Shown piece after piece: positions 14,656 through 57,049 of a stretch of DNA of 64,000 nucleotides. This DNA comes from a virus. The position numbers and the translations under genes are program-made. The notes beneath the pieces are model-generated. The model was not told the DNA's origin. It saw only the letters and a program-made list of their open reading frames with translations, and ran no database searches. The stretch lies in IMG/VR virus record IMGVR_UViG_3300021387_001054. One strand, written 5' to 3'. Position 1 is the stretch's first letter. Each line of letters starts with the position of its first letter.

Positions 14656-16644
14656 GTGGCAGTTAGTACACAGCTCTCCCCCGCTATTGCCGATGATGAA
14701 ATTTTCCAGTTTGACACAGTGCGTTTTGATTTAGCGTCTATTCGTTTAGACCAGATCGAGATTACTGACCCTGACTTGTTACAGTTAGCGTACAAATACT
14801 ATAAAGCACTCAGCGCAAAAAAGATTAAAGAGTATTTGCGTTTCTGCAAATTTGTGCAATGGGGACGTTTGAATCCAGTTGATTTTGCTTCGGCTGTATT
14901 TGGCATTGAGATGTTAGATTTGCAGAAATATGCTTTAATCAACTCTTGGCCGCGACAGTTTGTATTATGGCTTGAATGTCGAAACGCTGGCAAGACTACC
15001 TTGATCGCAATTTATGTTATGTTACGGTCGTTATTGATTCCCTATCATGTTACATACTTGTTAGGCAAAATCGGCGGTCAGTCAAAGCAAATATTCAAAA
15101 AAATTGAAGAAATTGCTACACAACGTATTGAGACATTCCTAGGTGTTACTGATGTGTTCTACAATGAGTTGCGCAAAGATGGTGCAAACTCAACAGGATT
15201 TAAGCACGATCCGAACTCGTTTGAATTGAATTTGTTTAATAACGCTGCTGTATATACATTGAACTCTGACCCAACAAATATTAAAGGTAAGCGTGCATCA
15301 TTAGTCGTATTTGACGAAGCAGGTTGGTTCTCTGACGAATTGTTTACACAAGCAGAAGCATTTGTAAATCAGAATGAAGAATTCAAATTAGGTGGAGATG
15401 TCGATTTAAGCATTGAGCCTACAGGATTCCCTAGACAGTTATTATATGCGTCTTCGGCTTCTGATACAAACTCTGGTTTTTATCGTAAGTTTAAGAATAT
15501 ATCAGAACGTATGTTACTTGGCGATACTCGGTACTTCTCTGTCAACTTTACAGCAGATGCTTTGTTGAATGCAAAGGTTGATGGTAAACCTTATACTTCT
15601 CTGGTATCTAAAGATCAGATTGATAAAATGATGACCGAAAAGCGCGAGGCTGCATTACGAGAATACTATAATCATTTTTCTGCTGACTCTTTTGAAGGGC
15701 AAATTATTTCTCGTCGAGATTTGATGCAGTGTACAGAAAACTATACTCCTATTATGTCCAACGATACCGGCAATCGAATCATTTGTATGTCGTGGGACTC
15801 TGCGAGACTGAACGATAATTCGGTTATTGTAATCGCAGAATTTTATAAAAAGAAAGAACGCGACAAAGATTCTGGCCGTACACGCGATATGGGATGGCAC
15901 ATGCGCATTCTCAATGTTGTCTCATTAGTTGACGTTAAAACCAAACAGCGCACGCCAATGCGTTTCCCTGAGCAAGTAGAAAGATTCAAACAATTATTGT
16001 TGGATTATAACGGCACGCAACACGGCAAAAAAGACTATGAAAACATTAAACGTATTATTTGTGATGCCGGTGCCGGTGGTCAGATCATTGGTTCTGTAGC
16101 TGATTATATGTTAGCTCACTGGACAGATTCATTTGGTAATGAACACAAAGGCATTATTGATGTTTCTCATAAGGCGAATGAAAGTGCTAGAGCCACTTAT
16201 CCTGATGCAGTTGATATTATGACGCTTGTCGATCCTAGAGCGCACAGAAATGAAATTTTTGATGCGATTGAAAAAATGGTGAAACTTGGAGTGGTATCAT
16301 TCCCTGCCGATCCAGAAGGCAGAGACTTTATTACCCATATTGATGATGAAGGCAATGACATTGTTACTCAACTGACGCCGGAACAGATGGTAGCTTGTTC
16401 TCAAATCGAGTTAATGAAAACAGAAATTGTTACTATGTGCAAGTATGTAACGCAAGGTAATATTCGTTATGATTTTCCGGCCGACAAAAGAAATCGTATG
16501 CACGATGACCGCGTATTTGCGTTTGGATTGTTGTGTTGGTATTTAGCGAAACTGCGGCGCGGTGATGTGGTAACACGTAGACCAGAAGATGAACCAGAAG
16601 TGTTTGTACTTCCGTTCCGTAAACCAGTATTAAGAAAACTCTAA
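14656..16644 (+). CDS. Terminase large subunit
   Basis: Walker A-like LECRNAGKTTLIAIYV and Walker B LVVFDEAGWF. Size, nuclease-like C-terminal half, and position before the portal gene all fit. Confidence 0.75.
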   Translation: MAVSTQLSPAIADDEIFQFDTVRFDLASIRLDQIEITDPDLLQLAYKYYKALSAKKIKEYLRFCKFVQWGRLNPVDFASAVFGIEMLDLQKYALINSWPRQFVLWLECRNAGKTTLIAIYVMLRSLLIPYHVTYLLGKIGGQSKQIFKKIEEIATQRIETFLGVTDVFYNELRKDGANSTGFKHDPNSFELNLFNNAAVYTLNSDPTNIKGKRASLVVFDEAGWFSDELFTQAEAFVNQNEEFKLGGDVDLSIEPTGFPRQLLYASSASDTNSGFYRKFKNISERMLLGDTRYFSVNFTADALLNAKVDGKPYTSLVSKDQIDKMMTEKREAALREYYNHFSADSFEGQIISRRDLMQCTENYTPIMSNDTGNRIICMSWDSARLNDNSVIVIAEFYKKKERDKDSGRTRDMGWHMRILNVVSLVDVKTKQRTPMRFPEQVERFKQLLLDYNGTQHGKKDYENIKRIICDAGAGGQIIGSVADYMLAHWTDSFGNEHKGIIDVSHKANESARATYPDAVDIMTLVDPRAHRNEIFDAIEKMVKLGVVSFPADPEGRDFITHIDDEGNDIVTQLTPEQMVACSQIELMKTEIVTMCKYVTQGNIRYDFPADKRNRMHDDRVFAFGLLCWYLAKLRRGDVVTRRPEDEPEVFVLPFRKPVLRKL

Positions 16645-16657
16645 AGGAGGTGTATGT

Positions 16658-18112
16658 GTGAGTAGCAATCAAGTTGTAGATGAACAGTTTTTAAGATACG
16701 CGAAACTTGCGAAACAATATTTAAGACCTCCGGGCAGTATTACTTCTGATACTCAGACCACATTTGGTTCTTTTACAAAAAAAGATATTCTGGATTTGTT
16801 AGAGCGTCCAGCAAATTCTGAAAGGCAACTGCGAAAAGCATCTATCATGCTTTACAATATTTCCAGTCATTATCGTCGTTTGATTTCTTATTTTGCTAAA
16901 ATGCCGACGTTTGACTTCTATCTAACACCACTTGGGGTTGATCCCCAGGCGAAAATTAACGAGAAGAGTTTTAAGAGTTGTTTCAAAAAGGCCGTTGACC
17001 AAGTAGAGCGGATGAATTTGAAACATGAATTACAAAAAGTATCAACTACGATTTGGCGTGAGGATGTATTTTATGGATATGAGTATGAGCAGAAAGACTC
17101 GTACTTCATCCAAAAATTAAATGCTGATTATTGTAGACTGTCTGCAATTGAAGACGGCGTGTTTACTTTTGAATTTGATTTTAGCTTTTTCAATTCTCGG
17201 TTGCATTTGCTGCCGTACTATGCTCCTGAATTTCAGCGCAAATATGAATTGTATAAATCAGATCGAAAAGGCAAACGCTGGCAAGAGCTTGATACAAAAA
17301 AAGAAGTATGTTTCAAGCTAAATGAAGATTTAGAATATATTTTCCCTCCCTTTGCAGGGACGTTCCCTGACATTTACGACATCGCTGATTATAAGCAGCT
17401 CATGAAGGCTCGCACTGAGATTGATAACTATAAATTGGTCTATTTGAAAATACCTTTTGAAAATGGCAGATTTAAGTTACCAGAAAGACTTGCGAATAAT
17501 TACTATGAGCAAATGGGACAGCAGATGCCACCCGGTGTTGGTCTTGGCATGACCCCCATGGATATCGACCAAGTAAGTTTTGAGCAATCTGGTAATACTC
17601 GTGACACAGATACGGTTGCGCGAAGTGAAGCTGCATTTTGGAGCGGTAGCGGTGCATCGTCTGCTATTCTCGGTAAAGATGATATTACATCGTCTTCTGC
17701 AATTATGCTGTCAATCGAAACAGATGCAGAAATTGTATATTCATTACTGCGGCAGATTGAACGATGGGTTAATCGTAAATTAAAACAATTATCGGGAACG
17801 TATCATTTTAAGCTCACATTCTTAAATTCGACTGTATTTAATAAGCAAAACGCACAGGAACAATACCTCAAGGCTTGTCAATATAGTTTCCCGTTGAAAT
17901 ATGCGGCTGCCGCAGCATACGGCATTACGCCGTCTGATTTTAGCGGTTTATTAGTATTAGAAAATGAGACAATGAAATTGCACGAGGAAATGATACCTGT
18001 ATCATCTTCTCATACGCAAAGCAGTGATAGTTCGCCGGGGCGTCCTGCCCAGGACACAGTAGATGAGTCGGGTGAAAAGAATAGGGCGAATGATAGCAAT
18101 GATAAACGGTAA
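16658..18112 (+). CDS. Portal protein
   Basis: 484-aa protein directly downstream of TerL, with a Ser/Asp-rich acidic C-terminus. Called by position and size. Confidence 0.55.
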   Translation: MSSNQVVDEQFLRYAKLAKQYLRPPGSITSDTQTTFGSFTKKDILDLLERPANSERQLRKASIMLYNISSHYRRLISYFAKMPTFDFYLTPLGVDPQAKINEKSFKSCFKKAVDQVERMNLKHELQKVSTTIWREDVFYGYEYEQKDSYFIQKLNADYCRLSAIEDGVFTFEFDFSFFNSRLHLLPYYAPEFQRKYELYKSDRKGKRWQELDTKKEVCFKLNEDLEYIFPPFAGTFPDIYDIADYKQLMKARTEIDNYKLVYLKIPFENGRFKLPERLANNYYEQMGQQMPPGVGLGMTPMDIDQVSFEQSGNTRDTDTVARSEAAFWSGSGASSAILGKDDITSSSAIMLSIETDAEIVYSLLRQIERWVNRKLKQLSGTYHFKLTFLNSTVFNKQNAQEQYLKACQYSFPLKYAAAAAYGITPSDFSGLLVLENETMKLHEEMIPVSSSHTQSSDSSPGRPAQDTVDESGEKNRANDSNDKR

Positions 18113-18360: not shown

Positions 18361-19890
18361 TTGAAGTCTTCACTTTCTAATTCGGTTTCTAATTTAACTG
18401 ATATCAATGACTCTTTCGCTCTTGGAACATTGAATGTAGCTTACACCGGTGAAAATCGAAATCAGACTGCAATCTCCAAAGAGGCATTTGAAAAAAGTGC
18501 TTGGTCAGCCTTAAACTGTCCGATTGTTGCTAATTATGACTTCGAGACAAAAGAAATCGGTGGTCATGACACAATTTTATCATTGTCACCTAATGGAGCA
18601 AGTGTTATCAACCTCACCCAACCTGTCGGTGTTGTGCCTGAATCGGCGAAATTTTATTGGAAATCAATTGAGGACAATGGCGTTGTGCATGACTATTTAT
18701 GTATTGATAATGTTATATTATGGAAACGTCAACCATGTTATCAGAAACTTGTCGAGAATGGCACAACCGCTCAGTCTATAGAAATTAGTGTTACTAATGG
18801 ACAGTTAGATGATGGCATATTACATATCAACGAATTTCAGTTTGAAGCATTTTGTTTGTTAGAACGCGATGAGCCGTGTTTTGAACAGGCTTCTTTGCAG
18901 TTATTTAGTAAGCAAGAATTTGCTGAACAGTGGCAACAGATGTTACAAGAATATGCACAAACCACATTACCGGATTCCGAGAATGGAGGGAAATCAGTGG
19001 ATTTAGAAAATACCGTAATTCAGGAAGTAGAAGATATAGCGGAGGAGACAGTAGTTGCCCCCGCAGATGATGGTGCACAAAATGATGTGGACGTAGCTGA
19101 ACAGTCTGCGGACGAAGAGGTTGTAGCAACTTCTGAGGAAACATCTGAGGTGGAAACGACAGAAAATAAAACGTCTGATGGTGAACTGCCTGTCGATGAC
19201 GAAACTGTTGAAAGCGAAGGAGCAGAAGTACTGGAGTCGTTTGCTTTAACTGCGGAACAAATTCGCTGCCAATTATTGCGAGAACTTGATGTTATGGGCA
19301 ATCATTTTAGCTTGTATGATTACGATAATGAAAATGTCTATTTTTATGATTGTGAAGATGGACTGTTGTATGGATGTGCGTACCAGATCGTAGATGGACA
19401 CGCGGTTATTAACTTAGAGACTAAAACTCGTAAGCAACTTGCTATTGTTGATGTAGAACAATCTGAGAGTCATTCTGTTTTGTCTGACTTAATCAATCAT
19501 ATGGTGGACGAGCAGGTTGGTAATTGCTCTGCTGCGTATGCAGATAAGATAGCTCAATTAGAAACTCAGATTGGCGAATTAAATGCTACCATTAAAGAAC
19601 TGACTGAGTTTAAGACACAGAAGTTGGCAGACGAGCGTGCATCTGCGGAGACGGCATTGTTTGATCGTTTTGATGAACAACTGCAACGGTGTGATGCGTA
19701 TACCGAATTAAAGCAACATGCAGCTGAGTATTCGCTCTCTGAATTAGAGACTCAGTGTTATGTATTAGTAGCAAAGAAAGCTATGATGTTTTCAAAGGCA
19801 CCTGTGTCTCGTAGAATACCCGTCGAGGGTGTTACAAATACGTCGGTAGATGCTTATGGTGGTTTACTGAACGATAAAAAACAAATTTAA
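18361..19890 (+). CDS. Scaffolding or prohead-protease-scaffold fusion-like protein
   Basis: Globular N-terminal domain, highly acidic low-complexity linker (EETVVAPADDGAQNDVDVAEQSADEEVVATSEETSEVETTEN) and a C-terminal coiled coil. Sits between portal and capsid. Confidence 0.35.
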   Translation: MKSSLSNSVSNLTDINDSFALGTLNVAYTGENRNQTAISKEAFEKSAWSALNCPIVANYDFETKEIGGHDTILSLSPNGASVINLTQPVGVVPESAKFYWKSIEDNGVVHDYLCIDNVILWKRQPCYQKLVENGTTAQSIEISVTNGQLDDGILHINEFQFEAFCLLERDEPCFEQASLQLFSKQEFAEQWQQMLQEYAQTTLPDSENGGKSVDLENTVIQEVEDIAEETVVAPADDGAQNDVDVAEQSADEEVVATSEETSEVETTENKTSDGELPVDDETVESEGAEVLESFALTAEQIRCQLLRELDVMGNHFSLYDYDNENVYFYDCEDGLLYGCAYQIVDGHAVINLETKTRKQLAIVDVEQSESHSVLSDLINHMVDEQVGNCSAAYADKIAQLETQIGELNATIKELTEFKTQKLADERASAETALFDRFDEQLQRCDAYTELKQHAAEYSLSELETQCYVLVAKKAMMFSKAPVSRRIPVEGVTNTSVDAYGGLLNDKKQI

Positions 19891-20445: not shown

Positions 20446-21462
20446 ATGGCTAATACTAACGAGATCGTAAGACTGGCTCTTGATAGCCGTCATGGTCGTG
20501 GTGATGCGACACATTATTCTGCGCATGACGTGCAAGACTCCCTGCGTTCTGCTCTGATTGACCTGAATGGTGGTTCTACGAAGTTGAATGCAAAGGCTAT
20601 CCGCAATGGCAATGCTAATGAGATGTTTTCTGTTGCCGAAGAGGTTATCCAGCATGAGTTAAATGATTATTGGACGAACAACGAGATTGTTAATCGTGTT
20701 GTTGAGCATCGCAATGCAGCTCTTGGCGATGACCTTGAGTTCTATGTACCGGACAATTCTCTGTTCGCAGTTGCTACTATTTCTGAGGGTAACACTGGTA
20801 TTCGTCGCCAGCGTTTTACGAATGGCCAGTACGTTAATGTTCCGGTTGAACTGCGCGGTATTAAGATTTATGAGGATATGATTCGCGTACTGTCTGGCCG
20901 TGTTGATTTTAATGATATGATTGACAGAGCTATTGCATCTATGGCAAAGGACGGTTACGACCGCGCTATGAGTGCATGGGCTAAGATTTCTGCTACCGAG
21001 CTTGGCGACACTTATGTTCCGACCGTAACTGGCACATACGACGAGGACACTCTTCTGCGCCTGGTTGATGACGTCGAGGCTGAAACCGGTAAGAAGGCTG
21101 TTATTTACGGCACGAAGCGTGCTCTGCGCACCATTGCTCCGTCCGTTGAGATGGCAGCATCGTCTGCGAAGGAAGACCTGTATCAGATGGGTTACTTTGG
21201 TAAGTTCTATGGCACCGATTGTGTTGCTATGCAGCAGGCGCACAAGACCAATTCGACCGAAATGGTTCTTGATGACAAGACCTTGTTTGTTATGGCAGCA
21301 GATGACAAGCCGATCAAGCACGTTACTTATGGTGAAGGACTCATCCTGCAAAAGGATGCTATCGAGAATGCTGATCTTACCTACGAGTGGCTTTACACTG
21401 AACGCGATGGTTTTGGTGTTGTTGTCAGCGACGTATTTGGTAAGTACACGTTTGCGAACTAA
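20446..21462 (+). CDS. Major capsid protein (candidate)
   Basis: 338 aa with strong RBS aggaggtt and codon usage biased to GC-ending codons (highly expressed). Position after the scaffold. The antisense ORF 20659-21351 is spurious. Confidence 0.5.
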   Translation: MANTNEIVRLALDSRHGRGDATHYSAHDVQDSLRSALIDLNGGSTKLNAKAIRNGNANEMFSVAEEVIQHELNDYWTNNEIVNRVVEHRNAALGDDLEFYVPDNSLFAVATISEGNTGIRRQRFTNGQYVNVPVELRGIKIYEDMIRVLSGRVDFNDMIDRAIASMAKDGYDRAMSAWAKISATELGDTYVPTVTGTYDEDTLLRLVDDVEAETGKKAVIYGTKRALRTIAPSVEMAASSAKEDLYQMGYFGKFYGTDCVAMQQAHKTNSTEMVLDDKTLFVMAADDKPIKHVTYGEGLILQKDAIENADLTYEWLYTERDGFGVVVSDVFGKYTFAN

Positions 21463-38065: not shown

Positions 38066-38071
38066 TGTGGA

Positions 38072-42662: not shown

Positions 42663-43067
42663 ATGCAAAACCGCTATAATCGCAGAAATAGACGCAAATA
42701 CAATCTTAAAGTGCATATCGTACTTGTGACCAAGTATAGGAAAGCGTTGTTGCAGAATGGTATCGACGACTTCGTAAAACGTGCTATAAGCTATCTCGCA
42801 GACCAAAACGACTGGACAATTATCGTTATGGAAACGGACAAGGATCACGTTCACATACTTCTGGAATATGACGCAACAGAACGCATCTGTGACATCATCA
42901 GCATCATCAAACAGAGAACAACACATTGGCTCTGGACACGCTACAGAAATATATTAAATAAGCAATACTGGGAAAAACACATCTTCTGGTCAGACGGATA
43001 CTTTGCCTGTAGTATTGGAGAAGTATCATCTGCAACCATTGAAAAGTATATAGCCGAACAAGGCTAA
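42663..43067 (+). CDS. tnpA: IS200-type Y1 HUH transposase TnpA
   Basis: HuH motif HVHIL. C-terminal Tyr block (RTTHWLWTRY...SDGYFACSIG). 134 aa. Confidence 0.8.
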   Translation: MQNRYNRRNRRKYNLKVHIVLVTKYRKALLQNGIDDFVKRAISYLADQNDWTIIVMETDKDHVHILLEYDATERICDIISIIKQRTTHWLWTRYRNILNKQYWEKHIFWSDGYFACSIGEVSSATIEKYIAEQG

Positions 43068-43147
43068 GAAAGGAGAAAGCGGCTCCTCCCACCTGCTAAA
43101 GCAAGTGGGTTTCCGCCGCTAAATGATTTTATGAAAGGATTATATAA

Positions 43148-44962: not shown

Positions 44963-44970
44963 GGTGAAGT

Positions 44971-47900: not shown

Positions 47901-48456
47901 AAATGCTAAATCAATACAAATCAATCCATATAATATATACATTGGCTCCCCAAAAGGAGGAGACATTATCCTTGCAGGCGAGACTGAATTCACAGAAACC
48001 CCTTATGTTTTAAAAGGGGGAGTCGTTTATCCCATAGACGCTTGTATCACTGGAATATACTTGGATGGGGTGATAGAGACTTGGCGATATGAGTGGCATA
48101 TAGGCGGTAGACTTCGTTTAACTATGAAGATTCCAGTAAACCCTGCTGTTAAAACCGCTTTGGGTAATAGCTATCGTAGTGGGTACTGTTATACTCCATC
48201 TGATTATAAATACCCATCATCTATTCTAGATCCAAACACTGACCTAGACGTTGCCATAAAATTCTCTCAAGTTCCTGTTGTGCAGATGACATTTACCCCG
48301 ACTAACAATCAAGGTGCATTCGTTTGGGCTACCGACTCTGGAACAACAACAACTCCCCCTCATTGTTATTTAGTTCGTCCTACCAGTTCAGATAGCGTAC
48401 AGGGATGGATTAACATTATTGTTGATGGAGAGTGGGAATACACAAATACTGAATAA
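44971..48456 (+). CDS. Tail fibre / receptor-binding protein 2 with tandemly duplicated [YLWNYE domain + collagen-like GDKGDKG + CBM] units
   Basis: Two copies of the about 155-aa CBM-like module (about 45440-45920 and 46890-47360), two copies of the upstream about 140-aa domain, and a C-terminal fibre domain. Confidence 0.5.
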   Translation: MSILTSCQNTFMDLTDPVGISNVSEHYAVSSSNSTPPTKWYDTPQTMTITNKYLWNYETITYSNNTTKDTDKRVIGVYGSTGKGISKVTNYYLATSSSSGITTSTSGWSEDAESQNVTPSKKYLWNYEKLTYTDNSIYSTDPCIIGAYGEKGDKGDRGTAGTTSNLLLDVYASTLKKVDAPADRYLSNSKNTNTTGAFVAASDLPDPNATHVYRVTSTDGKQRMLCWYASGHPPLLVGATYRLSCYAKANSGSPKLRFEINSVGHKTFDITDEWKRYEFTKTIPIYDSTPPDTYLRVYFGLGDSSNACELDLCGFRVEQVSDGIFGLAEHYAVSSSNTTAPSTWYDTPQTMTPTKKYLWNYETVTYADGTTKDTTKRVIGVYGNTGNPGVAGKGISAVTNYYLATASSSGVTTTTSGWTTTVQNVTSSKKYLWNYEKLTYTDSSTYSTDPCIIGAYGDTGTRGATWYAGTAISGGSSVSAKVFDNSGITSAIVGDVYLNTSTQDTYKCVKAGNAATAQWTYLSNIKGATGSPGGKGTDGKTAYFHVKYSNDGGKTFTGNSGEDPGTYIGTYTDNTSADSTSVSKYTWVKIEGEDGVSPTVSTSKSGATTTITIKDAQGIKTATVKDGDKGDKGDKGTSGMSANLLMDVYASTLTKIDAPADRYLSNSINTNTTGAFVAASDLPDPNATHLFRITSTDGKTRMLCWYAGTHPPLFTGATYRLSCYAKANSGNPKLRLFVNGVETKTVNTTSEWKRYELTVTVSEYDGTPDSNYLRVYFGLATSSGACELDMCGFRVEQVSEDILDIKDTASRALTSADGKNKVFYQKTAPTSGMKTNDVWFNTKKDKDHTMNVYDGTQWVLHKAGTTSISQGAITTDLLAANAVTADKILAGEIGTDQLAANAVTAAKINVKDLFAQNIEATGTIKGLTLEGAQIRGKQIDICNLPAGDYDVLEPRCSISTNTDTNSLVLEAKEGGSTNAKSIQINPYNIYIGSPKGGDIILAGETEFTETPYVLKGGVVYPIDACITGIYLDGVIETWRYEWHIGGRLRLTMKIPVNPAVKTALGNSYRSGYCYTPSDYKYPSSILDPNTDLDVAIKFSQVPVVQMTFTPTNNQGAFVWATDSGTTTTPPHCYLVRPTSSDSVQGWINIIVDGEWEYTNTE

Positions 48457-48581
48457 AAAATTAAGGTTATATCCCCTATTTGTAATCAGACTTCAAAAGA
48501 GGTGATTGGTCTTTTATTTTTGATGCTTTAAGTTGTTAAATAAGAGTTTTTAACAATCCACTACCCTATTTATAAAAAGCG

Positions 48582-48983
48582 ATGTGTTTTATGGAGGTTT
48601 ATCAGATACTTTGTTTGCTCGGTCTTCCCTCTTTGGTGTCTGGTGCTGTTGTATATTGTGTGAAAAAAATTGTGGCTATGATAGAAAGAATCGAATGTGC
48701 CAAGCAACAACAGATTGATAATAGTCGCCACGAGATAGAGAAAATTCAGAACCGAATTGATCTATTAGAACACTCACAACAAGCACAGTTAAGAGATAGT
48801 CTGATAGCAAATTATGAAAAATATGCAGCCCAAGGTAGTGCGCCCCTTTATGCAAAAGATAATTTTGAAAATTGTTGGATGTGGTATCACAGCTTGGGTG
48901 CTAACGGTGTCATGGACGATATTCACGCAAAGTTCATGGCACTACCTATACATCCCGAAGGAGATGATTCAAATGAGAATTGA
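48582..48983 (+). CDS. Membrane-anchored coiled-coil protein in the lysis cassette (133 aa)
   Basis: N-terminal TM segment and coiled coil. Overlaps the holin start. Confidence 0.3.
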   Translation: MCFMEVYQILCLLGLPSLVSGAVVYCVKKIVAMIERIECAKQQQIDNSRHEIEKIQNRIDLLEHSQQAQLRDSLIANYEKYAAQGSAPLYAKDNFENCWMWYHSLGANGVMDDIHAKFMALPIHPEGDDSNEN

Positions 48984-49248
48984 TGTTACAAAAATCAGTT
49001 CGGCAACTGTAACACGTTTTATTGTTTTAGTATTAGCTTTAGTCAATCAAGTTCTGTCAGCGTCCGGGCACCCTGTTCTTCCCATTGATGACGCTCAAGT
49101 TGAAATGTTGGTTACTTCCCTGTTTACTGTGGGTTCTGCCCTCGTCGGTTATTGGTTTGACAACGATGTTACTCGTTATGCGATTGAACGCAAAAAAGCC
49201 GGAGAGGAAATTATGTCCGCTCAAGAAGATACTGTAGATACATACTAA
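48973..49248 (+). CDS. Holin (phage phi-LC3-family-like), 91 aa
   Basis: MRIDVTKISSATVTRFIVLVLALVNQVLSASGHPVLPIDDAQVEMLVTSLFTVGSALVGYWFDND has the two-TM layout and pattern of phiLC3-type holins. ATG at 48973 is in frame within the listed 48814 ORF. Confidence 0.5.
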   Translation: MRIDVTKISSATVTRFIVLVLALVNQVLSASGHPVLPIDDAQVEMLVTSLFTVGSALVGYWFDNDVTRYAIERKKAGEEIMSAQEDTVDTY

Positions 49249-49255
49249 GAGTTAA

Positions 49256-49290
49256 GGAGCTGTCGGACTTCGGCAGCTCCATTTTATTAT
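49256..49290 (+). terminator. Rho-independent terminator (10-bp stem ggagctgtcg/cggcagctcc, then ATTTTATT)
   Basis: ggagctgtcggacttcggcagctccattttatt. Confidence 0.65.
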
Positions 49291-49301
49291 GAGGTGAAAT
49301 A

Positions 49302-49586
49302 ATGTTTATAGACGTTGTAAGGAAAGAAATTACAGCTAATTCTCCCGAAACATTTCAATTAAAAATCAGTGCTTGCAGTTTTCAGGTAAAGAATTTCACT
49401 GATGGCGCCGTATTGGTATGCTTAGATCATTGGAATGAAGATGAATCTGTAATGATTGGCGCGGGTATGTGTGAGGTTATCAACAGTAATCCAGACTTTG
49501 ACCGTGGCATGACACGCACGCCAACAAATAAGGTTGTTGTCAAAGGCGAACAGTCTGGTTTGGTAGAAGTTATTCGTTTTGACTAA
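49302..49586 (+). CDS. Hypothetical protein (94 aa)
   Basis: RBS gaggtga. Confidence 0.4.
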   Translation: MFIDVVRKEITANSPETFQLKISACSFQVKNFTDGAVLVCLDHWNEDESVMIGAGMCEVINSNPDFDRGMTRTPTNKVVVKGEQSGLVEVIRFD

Positions 49587-49664
49587 TAGTGTAATCTTAT
49601 TTGTATTTTTTATTCATCGTACTTCTGTGACATTATCACAGAAGTTTGCAAAGAAAGGACTACT

Positions 49665-50192
49665 ATGATTGAAAGAAAATCAATAATTGCCTCTACCCTT
49701 GGCGTTCAAAATCATGGTGGCAGTGGTGGAGATGTAGATTTAAGTGAATACAGGAAATATGTAGATCAAGATGTGATTGATGCGGCACTGACTGCGAAGG
49801 TGACGGCATTAGAAGATAAAGCCGAACGCTTTGTTGTACATTGTACTGCCTCTTCTATCCCGCCTTTTGGAGGAGCATTTGATATTGCTACTGATAAATC
49901 GTTCAATGATATATTATCTGCATACAACAGTAATAGAGAGGTATGCGCTATTTTGACGTCATCCGCAATGCAAGGTGTTGCATTCCTTACAGGCATTGCT
50001 CCGGATGCTGCTATATTTTACACTCTCATTACTTTAGGTTCGCAAAGCAATCTTATGTACTTACTCGTTTGTATTAGTAACGATAAACCGTTTGGCGTAT
50101 TGATGTCTGCAACATATGATGATACTGATATTTCTAATCGCGTTTCCGCACTGGAAACCGCGCTGACAGGACTAGACGAGGTGATCGGATGA
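49665..50192 (+). CDS. Hypothetical protein (175 aa)
   Basis: ORF with RBS aaggac. Confidence 0.4.
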   Translation: MIERKSIIASTLGVQNHGGSGGDVDLSEYRKYVDQDVIDAALTAKVTALEDKAERFVVHCTASSIPPFGGAFDIATDKSFNDILSAYNSNREVCAILTSSAMQGVAFLTGIAPDAAIFYTLITLGSQSNLMYLLVCISNDKPFGVLMSATYDDTDISNRVSALETALTGLDEVIG

Positions 50193-51700
50193 GTACATAT
50201 GTTGAGCGTATTCAAGCGCAGATTGATAAAGCGAATACTGCAACGGGAAAAGATGATTCCACGCTGGTACAAGCCGTTCAATCGCTCGTCGACGGCTACG
50301 GTGCAGGCGGCGGCGATTCCGGGGCGGAAGATATGCTGAAAGGCTTGATCGAACGCTCTGCAACGGAAATCACGATCCCAAACGGTGTGACGAGCATCGG
50401 GGATTATGGGTTTGCATATTATTCCGGCCTGACCAGCATCACGATCCCGAACAGCGTGACAAGCATCGGGAGTAATGCGTTTTTTAACTGTGCAAAATTA
50501 GCTAGTATTACGATCCCGGGCAGTGTGAAAACCATCGGAACCTTCGCATTTCAAAGGTGTTCACAACTTGCCAGCGTCACAATCCTGAACGGCGTGACGA
50601 GCATCAAGGATTATGCGTTTTACAACTGTGCAGAATTAGCTAGCATCACAATTCCGAACAGCGTGACAAGCATCGGGAGTAATGCGTTCAAGGGTATCAA
50701 CGCGAACGCCGTAATCACTTGCAAATTCGCAGAAGGCGCGGTGTCAGGTGCGCCGTGGGGTGCGCCAGACACGGTTCAAATTATTTACGAACGACGTGTA
50801 TATACTGTATATTTTTATAACGGTTCTACGCTGTTACAGACGGTTGAAGGAGTACAAGCAGGAGGAACGGCGACTTATACCGGGGAGACCCCGACAAGGA
50901 CTGGCGTGGAGAACCCTGAGGACTATTCGTTCAGCGGATGGTCGCCGTCTAACACCAACATCCAGAGCAACACATCCTGCTATGCACAGTTCAATTATAC
51001 TGGCGTGCCGGAGACCATTACGGATAGTTGGGACGACATCATCGCGGCGGTCAACAACGGGACCTATGCCAGCAAGTACAGCGTCGGAGACACCAAGCAA
51101 ATCGACCTCGGCACGGAGGGTATCGTGGCTATGCAGATTGCGGCCATCGACACCGACGCGCTCGCCAGCGGCAGCGGAACGGCGGCCATCACATGGATTT
51201 CGCAGCAGCTTATCGCTACGAGCCATCGCATGAACCCGGCCAGAGCCGCAGACCCGGAGGATTCCTCCAAGTATCAGGAGGGTACGGGAACCATCGGCGG
51301 CTGGGAAAAGACGGAGATGCGGAGCTGGCTGAAAGAAACGGTCAAGCCGCTTATCCCGGCGAACGTATTGGCAGCCATCAAGCCCGTAACGAAGTACAGC
51401 AGGATTTACGACACTTCCGGCAGCGCGGTGAACAACGTCACCAGCACGGAGGATGTATGGATTCCGTCGGCCAGAGAGGTCGGCTTCACCGGGTACGAGA
51501 CAGAGGGACCGACCTACACCGGGCTGTTTACGGCCAATGCAGACCGTATCAAGAGCAAGACAGGCGCGTCCAGCGCCTTGTGGTGGCGGCTGCGGTCCGC
51601 TTCCGGAAGCGATACCTTCGGTAATGTGCATTCGGCCGGCTCCTATATCAGTTACAGCGCGTACTACTCTGGCGCGGTGGTTCTCGGCTTCTGCATATAA
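50189..51700 (+). CDS. BspA-type leucine-rich-repeat protein with a Listeria-Bacteroides (flg_new-like) repeat and an uncharacterised C-terminal domain; GC-rich cargo gene
   Basis: About 5 LRR_5 repeats (ITIPNSVTSIGSNAF..C..L.SITIP..V..IG..AF). YTVYFYNGS...GETPTRTG..F.GW motif. GC rises to about 55-60% by eye against about 38-40% around it. The overlapping ORFs 50748-51233, 50834-51631(-), 51028-51624 and 51453-51836 are GC-driven artefacts. Confidence 0.65.
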   Translation: MSTYVERIQAQIDKANTATGKDDSTLVQAVQSLVDGYGAGGGDSGAEDMLKGLIERSATEITIPNGVTSIGDYGFAYYSGLTSITIPNSVTSIGSNAFFNCAKLASITIPGSVKTIGTFAFQRCSQLASVTILNGVTSIKDYAFYNCAELASITIPNSVTSIGSNAFKGINANAVITCKFAEGAVSGAPWGAPDTVQIIYERRVYTVYFYNGSTLLQTVEGVQAGGTATYTGETPTRTGVENPEDYSFSGWSPSNTNIQSNTSCYAQFNYTGVPETITDSWDDIIAAVNNGTYASKYSVGDTKQIDLGTEGIVAMQIAAIDTDALASGSGTAAITWISQQLIATSHRMNPARAADPEDSSKYQEGTGTIGGWEKTEMRSWLKETVKPLIPANVLAAIKPVTKYSRIYDTSGSAVNNVTSTEDVWIPSAREVGFTGYETEGPTYTGLFTANADRIKSKTGASSALWWRLRSASGSDTFGNVHSAGSYISYSAYYSGAVVLGFCI

Positions 51701-51753
51701 TCCGCAAACCCCTAATCTGGCTCCCTTTGTGGGGCCAGATAGGATTTGTCGGC

Positions 51754-51806
<53 letters not shown>

Positions 51807-51938
51807 GTGGGGCGTGTCTTTTTCTTTTTTGTTTAAAACGAACAGGGGGAAGGTAAGAGTAGCAGGGCGGGGGTGCGGTATAGTATTATTAACATCTCCT
51901 CTCTACCCCTCCCTCAAAACAAAAATCAACTATATCAA

Positions 51939-51957
51939 GGGGGAGTACCCCTTTTTT
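51939..51957 (+). terminator. Weak stem-loop ggggg-agta-cccc followed by TTTTTT
   Basis: aagggggagtaccccttttttc. Confidence 0.3.
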
Positions 51958-52033
51958 CTCCATATTACCTCCCCTAAAAATATATAAAACTCTCCAAACC
52001 TCCCCATAAACACTAGATTAACCAAATTTTATG

Positions 52034-52042
52034 TGATATAAT
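52034..52042 (+). promoter_or_regulatory. Extended -10 element TGaTATAAT upstream of the second-module TerS gene
   Basis: tgtgatataat, then RBS aaggagg and ATG at 52080. Confidence 0.4.
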
Positions 52043-52079
52043 ATACTTGATAAAAACAAAAAAGGAGGAAATACATACT

Positions 52080-52520
52080 ATGACTATAAACGAAAGACAA
52101 TTTGTAAACAATTATATTGAAACTCTAGATGACAAAAAATCACAAAAACTCGCTAACATAACCCCTTATGACCCTTCCTTGCTCTCTCGTCCAGATATTA
52201 ACTCTTTGATTTCTGAAAAACTAGAAGACCATTTCGCTACCTTAGATATCACCGATGAGTATATCTTATCCAACATCAAGAAAGTTTTTGAAGATGCCTC
52301 ACGTCCCGTACCTCGAGTTAAGATTGATAAATACGGAGACCAGATTTACTACCAAACTCAAGATGGTAAACCCATCATGGACATTGACCGCTCCAGCCAG
52401 TTGAAAGCCTTAGAACTATTAGGTAGGTATCGCAGCTTGTTCACTGACAAACAACAAGTTGATGTAAGCACAGATTTTGAGAAATATATATCCCAGGCTC
52501 AAGATAAGGAGGAATGGTAA
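52080..52520 (+). CDS. Terminase small subunit (candidate)
   Basis: ERQFVNNYIETLDDKKSQKLANI resembles the TerS helix-turn-helix N-terminus (..Q.F...Y.....N.T.AA..AGYS). Sits upstream of the second TerL. Start chosen at the RBS-supported ATG 52080, not the listed 52047. Confidence 0.45.
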   Translation: MTINERQFVNNYIETLDDKKSQKLANITPYDPSLLSRPDINSLISEKLEDHFATLDITDEYILSNIKKVFEDASRPVPRVKIDKYGDQIYYQTQDGKPIMDIDRSSQLKALELLGRYRSLFTDKQQVDVSTDFEKYISQAQDKEEW

Positions 52521-52524
52521 GACC

Positions 52525-53490
52525 ATGAGTACATCTACATCCACACCCACACCCACACTAGCAACTTTGAAACAACGTTTTTCTGAATATTTATCCAAAG
52601 TTAAACATCCGTATATATCGAAAATTGCTTCTGACTTAAATATATCTGAACTAGAAGTTAGAGGACTTATTGCTTTATTAAATTCGGAGTCACATTCACT
52701 AATGATAGATGATAAAGGTAGATTAAAACCGCTATCACCACAATCGTCACAAGAACCGTATCAGATACCGAACTTCTTAGACCATGTGCGTCTGTTATTA
52801 ATATCTGATACACATCTAGCCTCAAAATTTGATAGATTAGATATCTTACGATACTTGTATGATAAAGCTGATTCTACTCATACTAATTATATATTACACG
52901 CAGGAGATTTGACAGAAGGAGTAAGTGGTAGACCAGAACAACTCTATGACTTACGTGAACTATCGTACACAGGACAAAGAGACTACGTGATTTCAAACTA
53001 TCCCATCTCACCCACTGACTGCCCTACATATTTTATAGCTGGTAATCACGACAATTGGTGGTTAAAGAAATGTGGTTCAGATATATGTAAAGATATTTCT
53101 ATAAGACGACCTGACTTACACTATTTGGGTTCAGATTGTGAGGATTTGGCTATAGGTAGCCTACGCATACGTCTGTATCATGGGAAAGGTGGCTGTTCGT
53201 ATGCCCGTTCGTATAAATTACAGAAGTATTTAGATTCAATTCCAGCAGAACAACGACCTCACTTGTTGGTAACAGGTCACGTACATAATAGTTTTTACAT
53301 GAAACAAGATAAAACCCACTGCTTCCAAACTAGTTGCTTACAGGATTTGACACCGTACGCACGTTCACTAGGTCTTGCGTCAGATAAAAGTTGTTGGTGG
53401 GTAGATGTGTATTTTGATGCACAAGGTAGACCACATTCAGTAAAACAAGAATTAGAAACGTTTGAGAATAAAAAACAGTTAAAGAGGTGA
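52525..53490 (+). CDS. Metallophosphoesterase (calcineurin-like) with an N-terminal HTH-like domain
   Basis: Motifs LLISDTHL (D-x-H), HAGDLTEG (GD), FIAGNHDNWW (GNHD), VTGHVHNS (GH-x-H). Start at the RBS-supported ATG 52525. Confidence 0.65.
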   Translation: MSTSTSTPTPTLATLKQRFSEYLSKVKHPYISKIASDLNISELEVRGLIALLNSESHSLMIDDKGRLKPLSPQSSQEPYQIPNFLDHVRLLLISDTHLASKFDRLDILRYLYDKADSTHTNYILHAGDLTEGVSGRPEQLYDLRELSYTGQRDYVISNYPISPTDCPTYFIAGNHDNWWLKKCGSDICKDISIRRPDLHYLGSDCEDLAIGSLRIRLYHGKGGCSYARSYKLQKYLDSIPAEQRPHLLVTGHVHNSFYMKQDKTHCFQTSCLQDLTPYARSLGLASDKSCWWVDVYFDAQGRPHSVKQELETFENKKQLKR

Positions 53491-53496
53491 TATATC

Positions 53497-55179
53497 GTGT
53501 CATCGACAATAAATATAAAGAAATATATTGAGAACTTTATTAAAATTCGTAATAAAAATTCAGATATAGTGCCACTACACTTGAATAAACCACAACAAAA
53601 ATTATATGATATAATTCGCATGCAGAAACAACAAAATAAACCCGTTCGTATAATTATTTTGAAAGCACGTCAGATGGGGTTTTCGACAGTTACAGGTGGT
53701 TTGATACTCTCACAAACAGCCACACATAAAAATAAGATGGCTGCGATAGTCGCTCACCAGGAGGACTCAACAACTAACTTATTTAATATGTATAAGTTAA
53801 TGTATCAGAATTTGCCGACCGCTATACAGCCAACACAGTTGGCGTCAAACGCTAAAGAATTAGTGTTTGATAATAAAGCACACACGGGATTGAACTCACG
53901 TATAAGGTGTATGACCGCAGGTACAGGTGGAGTTGGACGTTCGTTCACGATAAATTATTTACACATATCAGAGTTAGCCTTCTGGAAAAGTGACGTACAA
54001 GAAACTATGTTAGGTTTGATGCAGGCTGTACCGAATACACCAGACTCTATGGTAATAATTGAGTCTACTGCAAACGGTTATGAGGAGTTTCAGTCACGTT
54101 GGGAGGCTGCTGAAAAAGGAGAATCAGACTTCTACCCACTATTTGTTGGTTGGAACGAGTTAGATGAATACTCTATGCCGTACTCTGGGTTCGAGCTAAC
54201 TGATGAGGAGCACAATCTTCAGGACACCTACTCCTTGACAAATGACCAGCTTGAGTGGAGAAGATGGTGTATTAAAAATAACTGTGGTGGAGATGTACGC
54301 TTGTTCAAACAAGAGTATCCGATAAGTCCAGAAGAAGCGTTCCTAACAACAGGTGACTGCGTATTTGACCAGGAGAAAATAATGGAGCGATTAAAACATA
54401 TTCCTGAACCACTATATAGAGGACACTTTGAGTATAAATATGATGATACTAAAGAAAAAGCTGAAAAGATGTCGGACATAAAATTCGTACCAACTAAAAC
54501 AGGATACATAAAAATATATAAAGAACCTGACCCATCACATTCGTATACACTATGTGGTGATACAGCTGGAGATACACAAGGAGACTATTTTGCGGCTCAT
54601 GTAATTGATAATATAACTTGCGAGCAGGTAGCCGTATATCACAACATGACAGACGAGACGTTATTTGCTAGGCAGATGATATGTTTAGGCTACAGATACA
54701 ATAAAGCACTGATAGCGATAGAGGCTAACTTCTCGACATATCCTAACAAAGAGATTGCGAGACTAGGGTATCCGAACATATACGTACGTGATAAAGAAGA
54801 TGACTATAGACAACCTATCGTATCAGCCTACGGATTTAAAACGACACAGATAACTAGACCACTAATAATATCATCACTAGTTGATATAGTTCGTGACAAT
54901 GTAGAGTGTATAAATGATAGATTAACACTAAATGAGTGCTTGACGTTCATAACAAATGAGCACGGTAGAAAAGAAGCCATGCAGGGTAAACACGATGACT
55001 TGGTTATGAGTTTGGGTATAGGGTATTATGTAAGAAATGCACATTACTTTAGAGTATCCTATAAAGAACCTGAACTTAAAAAATTATTTAAATGGAGCGA
55101 GGACTTGAAACAGGACTACTATAAAGCAGACCTTGCGACAAGAAAGAGAATGGAGGAGAAATATGGAGCAATCAATTAA
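53497..55179 (+). CDS. Terminase large subunit (second copy in the window)
   Basis: ATPase N-terminal half (ILKARQMGFSTVTGGLIL Walker A-like) and nuclease-like C-terminus. GTG start with RBS aaagaggtga. Position after TerS. Confidence 0.65.
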   Translation: MSSTINIKKYIENFIKIRNKNSDIVPLHLNKPQQKLYDIIRMQKQQNKPVRIIILKARQMGFSTVTGGLILSQTATHKNKMAAIVAHQEDSTTNLFNMYKLMYQNLPTAIQPTQLASNAKELVFDNKAHTGLNSRIRCMTAGTGGVGRSFTINYLHISELAFWKSDVQETMLGLMQAVPNTPDSMVIIESTANGYEEFQSRWEAAEKGESDFYPLFVGWNELDEYSMPYSGFELTDEEHNLQDTYSLTNDQLEWRRWCIKNNCGGDVRLFKQEYPISPEEAFLTTGDCVFDQEKIMERLKHIPEPLYRGHFEYKYDDTKEKAEKMSDIKFVPTKTGYIKIYKEPDPSHSYTLCGDTAGDTQGDYFAAHVIDNITCEQVAVYHNMTDETLFARQMICLGYRYNKALIAIEANFSTYPNKEIARLGYPNIYVRDKEDDYRQPIVSAYGFKTTQITRPLIISSLVDIVRDNVECINDRLTLNECLTFITNEHGRKEAMQGKHDDLVMSLGIGYYVRNAHYFRVSYKEPELKKLFKWSEDLKQDYYKADLATRKRMEEKYGAIN

Positions 55180-57049
55180 AGATTGGCAAGACAAATATAT
55201 TGATGCGTATAATCGATATGAAGAAGTCTTACGAAATGGTAAAGATAATGAGAAAGCCTATGAAGGTACTCGTAAAATTAAAAAACCAGATGGTACTGAT
55301 GCTGATAAACAGGGTTCAGTTTCACGTAAGATGTGTTTTGAGTTAACAGAAACTCAGGCTGATATTCAGATTCCAATGCCTCGTGTAATATCTAAAAGAG
55401 GTGCTGAAGAAAGAGCTATAATGATTGAAAATGTTATTAGAACAGAACTTGATGAGATGAATATGGAGGAGATAGTCGACGAACAAGCACGACTTACACC
55501 TATATGGGGTGGTTCAATATTTATGCTTGAATGGGATAACACCTATAGAGATTCATTTGGTGTAGGTAAATTAGTTGTAAAAAATTTACACCCATCACAA
55601 GTAATACCTCAGCCGGGTGTATACAAATTAGATGAAATGGACTACTTATTTATAACATTTGAGCAGACTAAAGACTATATTTTAAGAACATATGGTGTAA
55701 ATGTTGAGGAAGAAGGAGACCAGAATAAAGACGGCGAACCACTAGACCATATGAGAACTCACATATATTGTTATTACAGAAATGACGAAGGTAATATAGG
55801 ACTAATAAGTTGGGTAGGAGATACTAAAATTCAGGACTATGAAGACTATTTTTCTAGAAAACAAGAAGTATGTGAGAAATGTGGTGCTGTAAAAGACCCG
55901 TTTAAAGAAGAGTGTATTAAATGTGGTAGTAAAAAATTTAAAATAGAAGATAAAGAATACGAAGATGTTGACTATGATGTTGAAGTAACTGACCCTCAAA
56001 CAGGACTAACTACAACAACTAAGAAAACAGCTAAGGTAAAATATTATGTACCGAAGGTATTTCCGATAGTAATTCATAAAAATGTTGGTGATATTCACAG
56101 TTTCTTAGGTCGTTCAGATATTGACTTCATAAAAGACCAGCAGAATGATATGAATATTTATATGAATAAGATAAGAGAAAAGTTATTGAAAGGTGGTTCA
56201 TATTTTACACTACCGGAAGGTGTTGATGTTGAGGCTAGTGATGAAGAACTTAAAATAGTTAGAATAAAAGACCCAGCACAAAAGGCTATGATTGATGTAA
56301 CTACTGTTCAACCCAATATAGCAACCGACTTAGAAATCTTAAACTTTAACTATCAGATAGGTCGTCAGACACTAGGTATAACTGATTCATATCAAGGTCG
56401 TGAAGATAGAACAGCAACGTCTGGTAAAGCAAAACAAATAGCTGTTGAACAGAGTGCTGGTAGATTAAAAAGTAAACAGACTATGAAAGATGCTGCATTT
56501 GCTGATTTATATAAGTTGATGTTTCAGTTCTTGTTAGCATATACCGATGAGAAAAGACCATATATACAAGAAGATACAAACGGAAAACTTGAATACAAAT
56601 GGTTTGATAAGAAATTTTTCGTTGAAGAAGATGATAATGGAGAAATATATTACGATGATGAGTTTGTATTTAGTGTTGATGTATCTGGTACTTTGGCTAA
56701 CGATAGACAGGCTATGTGGCAGGAGACACGTTCTAACTTTGAAAGTGGTGCATACGGAGACCCAACTCAGTTAGATACACTAGAAATGTATTGGACTACT
56801 ATGAACAAACTTCACTATCCATGTGCTCCAGATGCATTGAAGTTAATATCACAACGTAAAGCAGAACAACAACAATTAATGTTACAACAACAAGCACAAG
56901 AGGCTGCTATAAATGCTATGAACGCTAGTCAGACTAAGAGATTACTTGCTGAGAATATAGACCAGCAGAATCAGTTAAATAGACAACAGAATGAACTACA
57001 AAGAGTTAAGCGAGAAGCAAAAGCTCCCTTAACGGATAAGGAGGATTAA
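55163..57049 (+). CDS. Portal protein (second copy)
   Basis: About 630-aa protein directly after TerL. RBS ggaggag before ATG 55163. Confidence 0.5.
   Translation: MEQSIKDWQDKYIDAYNRYEEVLRNGKDNEKAYEGTRKIKKPDGTDADKQGSVSRKMCFELTETQADIQIPMPRVISKRGAEERAIMIENVIRTELDEMNMEEIVDEQARLTPIWGGSIFMLEWDNTYRDSFGVGKLVVKNLHPSQVIPQPGVYKLDEMDYLFITFEQTKDYILRTYGVNVEEEGDQNKDGEPLDHMRTHIYCYYRNDEGNIGLISWVGDTKIQDYEDYFSRKQEVCEKCGAVKDPFKEECIKCGSKKFKIEDKEYEDVDYDVEVTDPQTGLTTTTKKTAKVKYYVPKVFPIVIHKNVGDIHSFLGRSDIDFIKDQQNDMNIYMNKIREKLLKGGSYFTLPEGVDVEASDEELKIVRIKDPAQKAMIDVTTVQPNIATDLEILNFNYQIGRQTLGITDSYQGREDRTATSGKAKQIAVEQSAGRLKSKQTMKDAAFADLYKLMFQFLLAYTDEKRPYIQEDTNGKLEYKWFDKKFFVEEDDNGEIYYDDEFVFSVDVSGTLANDRQAMWQETRSNFESGAYGDPTQLDTLEMYWTTMNKLHYPCAPDALKLISQRKAEQQQLMLQQQAQEAAINAMNASQTKRLLAENIDQQNQLNRQQNELQRVKREAKAPLTDKED

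Follow-up and report, generated by a model that had tools for sequence, protein, structure and literature searches.

Two packaging gene sets on one viral contig very probably come from unrelated phages joined inside a poly(T) tract

K-mers that are common to different genomes link assembly graphs and can yield contigs of mixed genomic origin (PMC7299287). The usual cause of such chimeras in metagenomes is a conserved gene or repeat of related strains. In the 64,000-nucleotide viral stretch analysed here (the window), the shared sequence is a T homopolymer, and each side of it has a well-supported, different continuation in other assemblies; unlike the usual case, the two sources are unrelated phages that have in common only a low-complexity T run, 22 T long in one and at least 54 T in the other. 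We consider the window very probably a chimeric metagenomic contig in which an in-silico step or a library chimera fused two unrelated phage genomes within a poly(T) tract native to each. Its source is probably sheep rumen. Bases 1-51779 belong to phage 1, as part of a SPbeta-like siphovirus genome of ~109 kb with its own large terminase subunit (TerL) and portal, and bases 51758-64000 are the start of phage 2, a phage of ~48 kb with a T4-type TerL and its own small terminase subunit (TerS) and portal. Each packaging set would serve only the phage that encodes it, and a nested element, a satellite, and a recombinant would all be absent from this picture. Because the two sets come from separate genomes, most likely stitched in a common T run, their adjacency is almost certainly an artefact and not biological.

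The phages with which phage 1 is best compared are the SPbeta-like phages (SPbeta, Sundance, and TR-TP1), which share with it a YonO-type RNA polymerase (YonO is described in PMC5467207) and a YonD_N protein. Its portal and a structural protein have homologues in Sundance, and the gene order (RNA polymerase and HU, then TerL, portal, tape measure, and giant fibre) is that of TR-TP1. With its RNA polymerase, virion module, and genome of more than 100 kb, phage 1 has the characters of a SPbeta-like phage, a resemblance that holds at the family level only. Phage 1 differs from these phages in carrying plasmid-type genes (Rep3 and ParA/ParB), an IS200/IS605 insertion, and a GC-rich leucine-rich repeat (LRR) cargo gene, and from Sundance in that its TerL is of another lineage than the Sundance packaging protein, to which it has no detectable similarity. 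Close relatives of phage 1, as judged also from its portal, were not found in the GTDB genome collection.

Genes of the window lie on the plus strand unless stated otherwise. The YonO-like single-chain RNA polymerase of phage 1 (8475-10931; Pfam PF05183, RdRP, E 2.7e-17) is, by tblastn, 40.6% identical to gp3 of Thomasclavelia phage TR-TP1 and 23% identical to SPbeta yonO. It is followed by a tyrosine integrase/recombinase (12509-13471; phrog_1, E 2.5e-46) with XerA/XerC-like NCBIfam matches that all score under the curated cut-offs. A preliminary description of this DNA had placed a TerL and a portal at 14656-18112, and both are present there. The TerL (14656-16644, 662 aa) is divergent, and its assignment draws on PHROG, tblastn, sequence motifs, and synteny: it matches phrog_9 (E 1.1e-6) and the annotated TerLs of Bacillus phages Stahl and Slash (E 5e-9), resembles the terminase ATPase domain of TR-TP1 by BLASTP (E 1e-6), and scores 20 bits against Pfam Terminase_6N, just below the 22-bit cut-off. 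Its translation contains a Walker A motif (NAGKTT), a Walker B motif (LVVFDEAG), and a C-terminal HDD nuclease motif, and the gene is immediately followed by that of the portal, an arrangement found also in TR-TP1 and Sundance. No match to it was found in PDB or NCBIfam. The portal (16658-18112; phrog_2739, E 4e-122) is 38% identical to that of Brevibacillus phage Sundance.

Downstream of the portal lie a YonD_N-domain protein of the virion module (18361-19890; phrog_3313, with a precomputed match to Pfam PF27290, YonD_N) and a virion structural protein (20446-21462; phrog_4088, E 1e-78) that is 32% identical to the gp023 structural protein of Sundance (E 2e-53) and, judging by its position and size, is probably the major capsid protein. 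A tail tape measure protein (27709-29997; phrog_4211, E 1.4e-76) precedes a distal tail and fibre module of giant proteins of 1781, 429, 1072, 604, and 1161 aa (31063-48456), which contain DUF6558 phage-tail domains and a collagen-flanked surface repeat. This module is interrupted by an IS200/IS605-type element (41434-43067) encoding TnpB on the minus strand (41434-42588; Pfam Cas12f1-like_TNB and OrfB_IS605) and a Y1 TnpA (42663-43067; Y1_Tnp on the identical gene of two other phage-1 assemblies, L001 and L002). The last gene before the T run is the cargo gene (50189-51700), for which Pfam predicts BspA-type LRR and DUF6273 domains. It has a GC content of 54.5% and a tetranucleotide profile that does not correlate with that of the remaining window. 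The gene is native to phage 1, since the exact protein also occurs on L001, L002, and a third contig, L003.

Phage 2 is best compared with Roseobacter phage CRP-7 and Podoviridae sp. ctuNt529, which are podovirus-like, have genomes of ~45-58 kb, and encode TerLs 32-33% identical to its own (33% for CRP-7). As in these phages, the portal comes straight after TerL and the early genes are divergently transcribed. Phage 2 differs from them in its unusual gene order, in the long T homopolymer upstream of TerS, and in having true relatives that are uncultured. The second TerS, TerL, and portal that the preliminary description had reported at 52080-57049 are indeed found. TerS (52080-52520) matches Pfam Terminase_2 at 35 bits, against a cut-off of 26.1 bits, and phrog_51. 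Between TerS and TerL lies a metallophosphoesterase (52525-53490; Pfam Metallophos and Metallophos_2), called as a 321-aa gene on the phage-2 scaffold L004 and absent from the genes listed in the preliminary description. TerL (53497-55179; phrog_2, E 1.7e-21) is of the T4 gp17 type, having homology over both the ATPase and the nuclease domains of the solved T4 gp17 (PDB 3ezk/3cpe; E 2.4e-23, residues 46-224 and 325-512). The portal (55163-57049, with the longest open reading frame starting at 55133; phrog_156, E 8e-39) has counterparts of 82-86% identity in IMG/VR contigs. As the preliminary description held, the two sets differ in sequence: neither the two TerLs nor the two portals have any detectable similarity to each other.

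The second portal runs, as described before, into tail genes, with no capsid gene before base 64000. These are a pectate-lyase-like tail spike (57432-59606), two tail-fibre proteins with collagen-like N-termini (59671-60210 and 60210-61856), and a 745-aa fibre-like protein cut by the window end (62061-64000; gene calls on L004 and on contig L015), which has a collagen-like N-terminus, a weak metallo-beta-lactamase match, and PHROG tail matches. The earlier hint that capsid genes might be missing was dispelled by looking past 64 kb, where a major head gene lies ~7.5 kb beyond the window end and an endolysin lies just outside the window. Phage 2 has the unusual order of portal, tail spikes, holin-like gene, fibre, endolysin, and, ~14.5 kb later, head protein. 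Its scaffold L004 (47,992 bp) carries tail spikes and fibres, a holin-like gene, an amidase endolysin, and a major head protein, and phage 2 is a complete, self-sufficient phage. No integrase was seen in its first 20 kb, the part examined. Across the 64-kb window, Rfam at the gathering threshold returned nothing and ARAGORN found no tRNA.

The two halves exist apart in other assemblies, and the switch from one genome to the other falls within the T run. On the phage-1 side, L001 (a 108,841-bp scaffold) and L002 (a 59,049-bp NODE contig) match window 40189-51779 at 99.98% identity, and L001 is exactly collinear with the window over 16658-51779. In both, identity to the window ends inside the T run, which has exactly 22 T and continues into GAGGGATAAAACATAATTTAAGGAGG, the native phage-1 sequence, with genes for a 107-aa protein, a CBM5_12 protein, Rep3, ParA, and ParB. 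On the phage-2 side, the terminal 10.8 kb of L004 are 100% identical to window 51758-62520, and the phage-2 contigs that end inside the T run are L004 (54 T), a Logan contig (23 T), and an NCBI contig (3 T). Identity to phage 1 therefore stops at 51779 and identity to phage 2 begins at 51758, both within the 48-T homopolymer at 51758-51805 that is the point of the chimeric join. Its first 22 T are compatible with phage 1 and all 48 with phage 2, as L004 ends in at least 54 T, and in both phages a T homopolymer followed by G is native. The breakpoint thus lies in low-complexity sequence common to both sources, and each side of it is found elsewhere with another continuation (L001 and L002 for phage 1; the relatives L010 and L018 for phage 2). 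We infer that an assembler or scaffolder made the join. At 22 T, the run falls short of the final k-mer that most modern assemblers use, a point that counts against the chimera account.

Among indexed contigs, the first portal occurs on 16, five of which are 50-200 kb long, with several sheep-rumen runs represented, the second TerS occurs only on contigs of at most 50 kb, and none carries genes of both halves. The GTDB genome collection lacks the junction 71-mer, exact-pattern scans of IMG/VR with the T-run flanks (the phage-1 side and the phage-2 leader) gave no match, and neither half matched any of 50,697 phage records by megablast. In JGI metagenome contigs the phage-2 leader was found only on one 3.4-kb AUXO contig, which starts at the T run. 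The assemblies compared come largely from the same or sister samples, and so are independent as assemblies and not as biology. The source runs encountered are SRR873599, SRR873600, SRR873601, and SRR873603, which belong to BioSamples SAMN02144230 and SAMN02144231. At the start of the window, bases 1-107 are a GC-rich tandem repeat of 44 bp in 2.4 copies (TRF), the assemblies L021, L022, and L023 start at window positions ~10, 54, and 79, and L020 reads through with the same 2.4 copies. The window begins in a repeat where other phage-1 assemblies also break, which makes it a typical contig end.

Composition changes at the same point. GC content is 38.5-40% to the left of the junction and 38.7% in the phage-1 continuation on L001, as against 32% to the right, 31% in the phage-2 continuation past the window, and 28-30% in the relatives of phage 2. 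Tetranucleotide correlations are 0.93-0.97 within each phage and 0.86-0.92 between them, so that GC and tetranucleotide usage both shift abruptly at the join. The 7-point GC gap suggests different hosts. The lower GC of the second set and the separation of the sets by a GC-rich cargo gene and a poly(T) tract, both features of the preliminary description, are accordingly borne out.

The relatives of phage 2 are uncultured contigs from rumen and gut, 44-49 kb long, in which the early and replication module is complete. L018, a 47,842-bp contig from another sample, was reached via P0036, a homologue of the neighbouring amidoligase gene; two further homologues of that gene, P0018 and P0055, pointed to different samples or different phages. 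In alignments, homology of phage 2 to its relatives L010, L012, and L018 starts exactly at the T tract. L018 has 34 pure T followed by GGTGGGTGGG, inside the contig and between early genes and TerS. In L010 and L012 the tract is T-rich with interruptions and the leader is that of phage 2; L010 extends ~7 kb upstream, with minus-strand early genes preceding the tract. Since the tract lies within the contigs of these relatives, with their own early genes upstream, it is native to the phage-2 family. The conserved non-coding leader between the tract and TerS, defined by the same alignment, spans 51806-52079 on the plus strand and contains GGTGGGG..., GGGGGAAGGTAAGAGTA, and the hairpin GGGGGAGTACCCC followed by a T run, with a terminator-like site at 51937-51953. 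Directly upstream of this conserved leader and TerS, the tract itself is hypervariable, ranging in the family from an interrupted T-rich stretch through 34 T to 54 T or more, and it may have a function, for instance as an origin, as a packaging start, or as a late promoter tuned by slippage. This idea is weaker in novelty, yet likelier than a hybrid with a real junction.

The preliminary description had read the two sets as two adjacent or nested mobile elements or as a recombinant. Their independence stands, as they belong to separate phages, each half of the window being found alone elsewhere; their adjacency or nesting in one real molecule is unsupported. A real juxtaposition would mean that, in a sub-population, insertion or recombination had united the 48-kb phage 2 with the 109-kb phage 1 at poly(T) microhomology that the two share. 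Both phages do occur in the same samples, and a T homopolymer followed by G that is native to both could support illegitimate recombination or template switching. We nonetheless regard this as very unlikely: the inspected phage-1 contigs have the uninterrupted 22-T form, all other phage-2 contigs end in the T run, no indexed contig holds both halves, the relatives of phage 2 keep their own early genes upstream of the tract, the GC gap suggests different hosts, no integrase appears in the examined 20 kb of phage 2, and a hybrid of ~157 kb would presumably fit neither capsid. The earlier suggestion of a recombinant is likewise unsupported, given a switch that falls inside a homopolymer native to both phages and phage-1 assemblies that read through 22 T. 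Its more specific form, a minority rumen hybrid that arose by recombination of a 48-kb lytic-type phage into the poly(T) tract carried by a 109-kb SPbeta-like phage-plasmid, appears slightly less probable again; if true, it would make long homopolymers hotspots of inter-phage recombination. Tandem or nested prophages were considered and rejected: the junction was not reproduced, phage 2 being missing from all the phage-1 contigs examined and all the examined phage-2 contigs stopping at the T run; a homopolymer, and not an att core, forms the boundary; and the first 20 kb of phage 2 hold no integrase.

Capsid-forming PICIs (cf-PICIs) encode their own capsid and packaging genes and depend on helper tails (10.1101/2025.02.11.637232), and the window resembles such a pairing in that a second, independent packaging set is seen beside a large temperate phage, with no capsid gene after its portal within the window. 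A satellite of this kind, beside or inside a helper prophage and with its own TerS, TerL, and portal, was also among the earlier suggestions, and we judge it extremely improbable. Phage 2 stands alone at 47,992 bp and differs from cf-PICIs in having its own tail (spikes and fibres) as well as lysis, capsid, and replication genes; its relatives are contigs of 44-49 kb that include a full early and replication module; and its position beside phage 1 lacks support in the first place. The gene content of L015 also contradicts a satellite. That a single large phage genome should naturally contain two packaging modules has the window itself as its one point of support and is the least credible reading, with a probability close to nil. 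The 108.8-kb phage-1 scaffold continues without the second set, portal-2 homologues occur in no SPbeta-like record, and comparison of each half separately, as the preliminary description had proposed, shows the isolated phage-1 relative TR-TP1 to have one terminase and one portal. A single conserved genome with both sets was not found among the relatives.

Chimeric joining within the T run thus remains by far our preferred account, and it bears on how such contigs are used. Taken at face value, the contig would be catalogued as a phage of ~100 kb equipped with two packaging machines, or else as a phage together with its satellite, and either entry misleads viral catalogues, genome-size estimates, host prediction, and taxonomy. 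A simple check is to compare each flank of a suspect junction with other assemblies and to ask whether the breakpoint lies within low-complexity sequence. Phage 1 and phage 2 are new but ordinary members of kinds already known, and their case illustrates how the genomes of two unrelated phages can become fused through a long homopolymer.

The preliminary description had placed two terminase-portal sets in the window, and ORF listing together with profile searches located both at those positions. Set 1 lies in an SPbeta-like genome on the left (phage 1, 1-51779) and comprises a divergent TerL (14656-16644; phrog_9, E 1.1e-6) and a portal (16658-18112; phrog_2739, E 4e-122). This TerL scores 20 bits against Pfam Terminase_6N (cut-off 22), matches annotated TerLs of Bacillus phages by tblastn (E 5e-9) and the terminase of Thomasclavelia phage TR-TP1 by BLASTP (E 1e-6), and carries Walker A, Walker B and C-terminal HDD motifs in its translation. 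Set 2, in the right-hand genome (phage 2, 51758-64000), consists of TerS (52080-52520; Pfam Terminase_2, score over the cut-off), TerL (53497-55179; phrog_2, and T4 gp17 structures at E 2.4e-23) and portal (55133/55163-57049; phrog_156, E 8e-39), with a metallophosphoesterase (52525-53490) between TerS and TerL. No similarity was detectable between the two TerLs or between the two portals.

The two genomes meet at a homopolymer of 48 T (51758-51805). The exact leucine-rich repeat (LRR) protein of phage 1 is encoded on two differently named assemblies, a 108.8-kb scaffold (L001) and a 59-kb NODE contig (L002), both of which match window 40189-51779 at 99.98% identity until the match ends inside the T run; each then has exactly 22 T followed by GAGGGATAAAACATAATTTAAGGAGG, with genes for a 107-aa protein, CBM5_12, a 304-aa protein, Rep3, ParA, ParB and a resolvase. 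The exact TerS of phage 2 is found on a 47,992-bp scaffold (L004), a Logan contig (L005) and an NCBI contig (L006), which all terminate within the T run (54, 23 and 3 T, respectively); L004 matches window 51758-62520 at 100% identity. Because the phage-1 match ends and the phage-2 match begins within this run, the switch of genomes falls inside a homopolymer that both phages own. The assemblies compared come from the same or sister samples, probably of sheep rumen, since their record names (SHIW14-1, SAMN02144230/31, SRR8735xx-SRR8736xx, AUXO01) indicate a metagenome study of that source.

Base composition follows the same division, with GC of 38.5-40% in the phage-1 segments of the window and 38.7% in their continuation in L001, and of 32% in the phage-2 segment, 31% in its continuation (L015) and 28-30% in its relatives. 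Tetranucleotide correlations are 0.93-0.97 inside each phage and 0.86-0.92 across the two. Of the 16 indexed contigs with portal 1, five measure 50-200 kb, and no indexed contig carries both portal 1 and the phage-2 TerS, since the latter is confined to contigs of 50 kb or less. The junction 71-mer was not found in the GTDB genome collection, nor were the flanks of the T run, on either side, in IMG/VR; among JGI metagenome contigs, the phage-2 leader appeared on only one, of 3.4 kb, which itself begins at the T run.

A single organisation holding both packaging sets was sought among complete homologous phages, and the opposite was seen: in the isolate TR-TP1 (89.7 kb) terminase and portal are each present once, while homologues of portal 2 in the phage collection are limited to two faecal fragments, with none in its SPbeta-like records. 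These results favor the earlier reading of two elements, though not as adjacent or nested ones, given that each phage continues separately in other assemblies and the switch lies inside the common T run. We are highly confident that these are two real, independent phages, and that they were brought together at the common homopolymer only by an assembly artefact or a library chimera; k-mers common to different genomes are a recognised cause of chimeric metagenomic contigs (PMC7299287). The shared or sister origin of the comparison assemblies leaves some doubt over a chimera, and a real low-frequency recombinant between the two phages at the T tract is conceivable, if very improbable.

Relatives of phage 2 in IMG/VR, with portals 82-86% identical to portal 2, place the tract within this family. 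In two of them (L010 and L012) the T-rich tract is interrupted and leads into the same leader as in the window's phage 2; L010 reaches ~7 kb upstream of the tract, through minus-strand early genes including an amidoligase, and L012 has only ~60 bases there. A third relative, a 47,842-bp contig from another sample (L018), has 34 uninterrupted T followed by GGTGGGTGGG, internal to the contig with early genes on one side and TerS on the other. In a four-way alignment of the window and these relatives, homology starts exactly at the T tract, and nothing in the relatives matched the phage-1 sequence on the window's left flank. Judged from these sequences, the T tract is native to phage 2. Homologues of the neighbouring early gene are mostly on contigs of 44-49 kb, consistent with a phage-2 genome of roughly 48 kb.

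The tract immediately precedes a conserved non-coding leader and TerS, where the early gene block gives way to the late one (tract and leader at window 51758-52079; L018, reverse strand, about 6600-7400; L010 7180-7470; L012 64-360). It is very variable in the family, from interrupted T-rich sequence (L010, L012) to 34 pure T (L018) and at least 54 T (L004), and the leader holds GGTGGG..., GGGGAAGGTA and a GGGGGAGTACCCC hairpin. Relatives carry a tRNA (Gln or Cys) between leader and TerS (L010 7621-7694, L018 6406-6482), accompanied in L018 by a GIY-YIG gene; neither is present in the phage 2 of the window. Because all phage-2 assemblies break at the tract, its true length may exceed the span of short reads. 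The tract could act as an origin or a promoter element, or mark the start of packaging.

The apparent lack of capsid genes after set 2 had hinted at a satellite, a suggestion that is not borne out by the phage's own scaffold. Past the window end this encodes a fibre-like protein of 745 aa, an Amidase_2 endolysin, some dozen small proteins and a major head protein (PF25209; phrog_371, E 1.8e-13 on partial sequence), whose gene lies at window-equivalent ~71.5 kb, some 14.5 kb downstream of the portal. Phage 2 is thus complete in itself, with its genes in an unusual order, in contrast to cf-PICIs, which depend on helper tails (10.1101/2025.02.11.637232). In this order (window 52525-53490 and 57052-64000; L015 10194-20213) TerS and TerL are separated by the metallophosphoesterase, and after the portal come tail spike and fibres, a 70-aa holin-like protein, the 745-aa fibre (with a weak metallo-beta-lactamase/Apyc1-like match), the endolysin and, later, the head protein.

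The fibre genes of phage 2 include two collagen-like N-terminal segments of ~111 bp (57480-57590 and 59749-59859; 87% identical), and a 1161-aa protein of phage 1 has two 324-bp segments (45422-45744 and 46855-47177; 79% identical); such internal repeats may be substrates for fibre-module shuffling in both phages. An IS200/IS605-type element (41434-43067; minus-strand TnpB and plus-strand Y1 TnpA) separates giant tail-fibre genes in phage 1 and is found in both other assemblies spanning that stretch (L001 and L002). The BspA-type LRR/DUF6273 gene (50189-51700) has a GC content of 54.5%, reaching 60% over the 3' half, against 39% for phage 1, and its tetranucleotide profile shows no correlation with the remainder of the window. 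It looks like recently acquired cargo and is native to phage 1 in all assemblies covering it (L001, L002 and a third, L003). At the window start, a GC-rich 44-bp tandem repeat of 2.4 copies (1-107; 1338-1442 in L020, a phage-1 contig) sits within an otherwise AT-rich intergenic region of ~1.5 kb. One assembly reads through this repeat and several others break at it, an indication that the window begins at the end of a contig.

Phage 1 is an SPbeta-like phage of roughly 109 kb, because a 108,841-bp scaffold holding its DNA is exactly collinear with window 16658-51779, besides its likeness in gene content and order. Upstream of set 1 are a YonO-type single-chain RNA polymerase, an HU-like protein and a tyrosine integrase (12509-13471); downstream are a YonD_N protein, a structural protein with 32% identity to Sundance gp023, a tape measure protein, the giant tail proteins split by the IS200/IS605 element, and holin-like genes followed by the LRR cargo gene. 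This order is that of Sundance and TR-TP1, and the relatives of portal 1 are large Firmicutes siphoviruses (e.g. Sundance, 38% identity). Past the junction, L001 encodes plasmid-type maintenance functions (13513-17707: a Rep3_N initiator, an RHH protein, ParA and ParB, with a resolvase further on), and with these and its integrase phage 1 may be a phage-plasmid. Its early region also encodes a SocA/Panacea antitoxin-domain protein (3506-3949) and an SPFH/Band 7 protein (7089-7961), which may be defence or counter-defence accessories. The RNA polymerase (8475-10931; 818 aa, Pfam RdRP PF05183) is 40.6% identical to TR-TP1 gp3 and 23% identical to yonO of SPbeta, whose single-chain RNA polymerase is YonO (PMC5467207). 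The range of YonO-type enzymes is thereby extended to a putative rumen phage.
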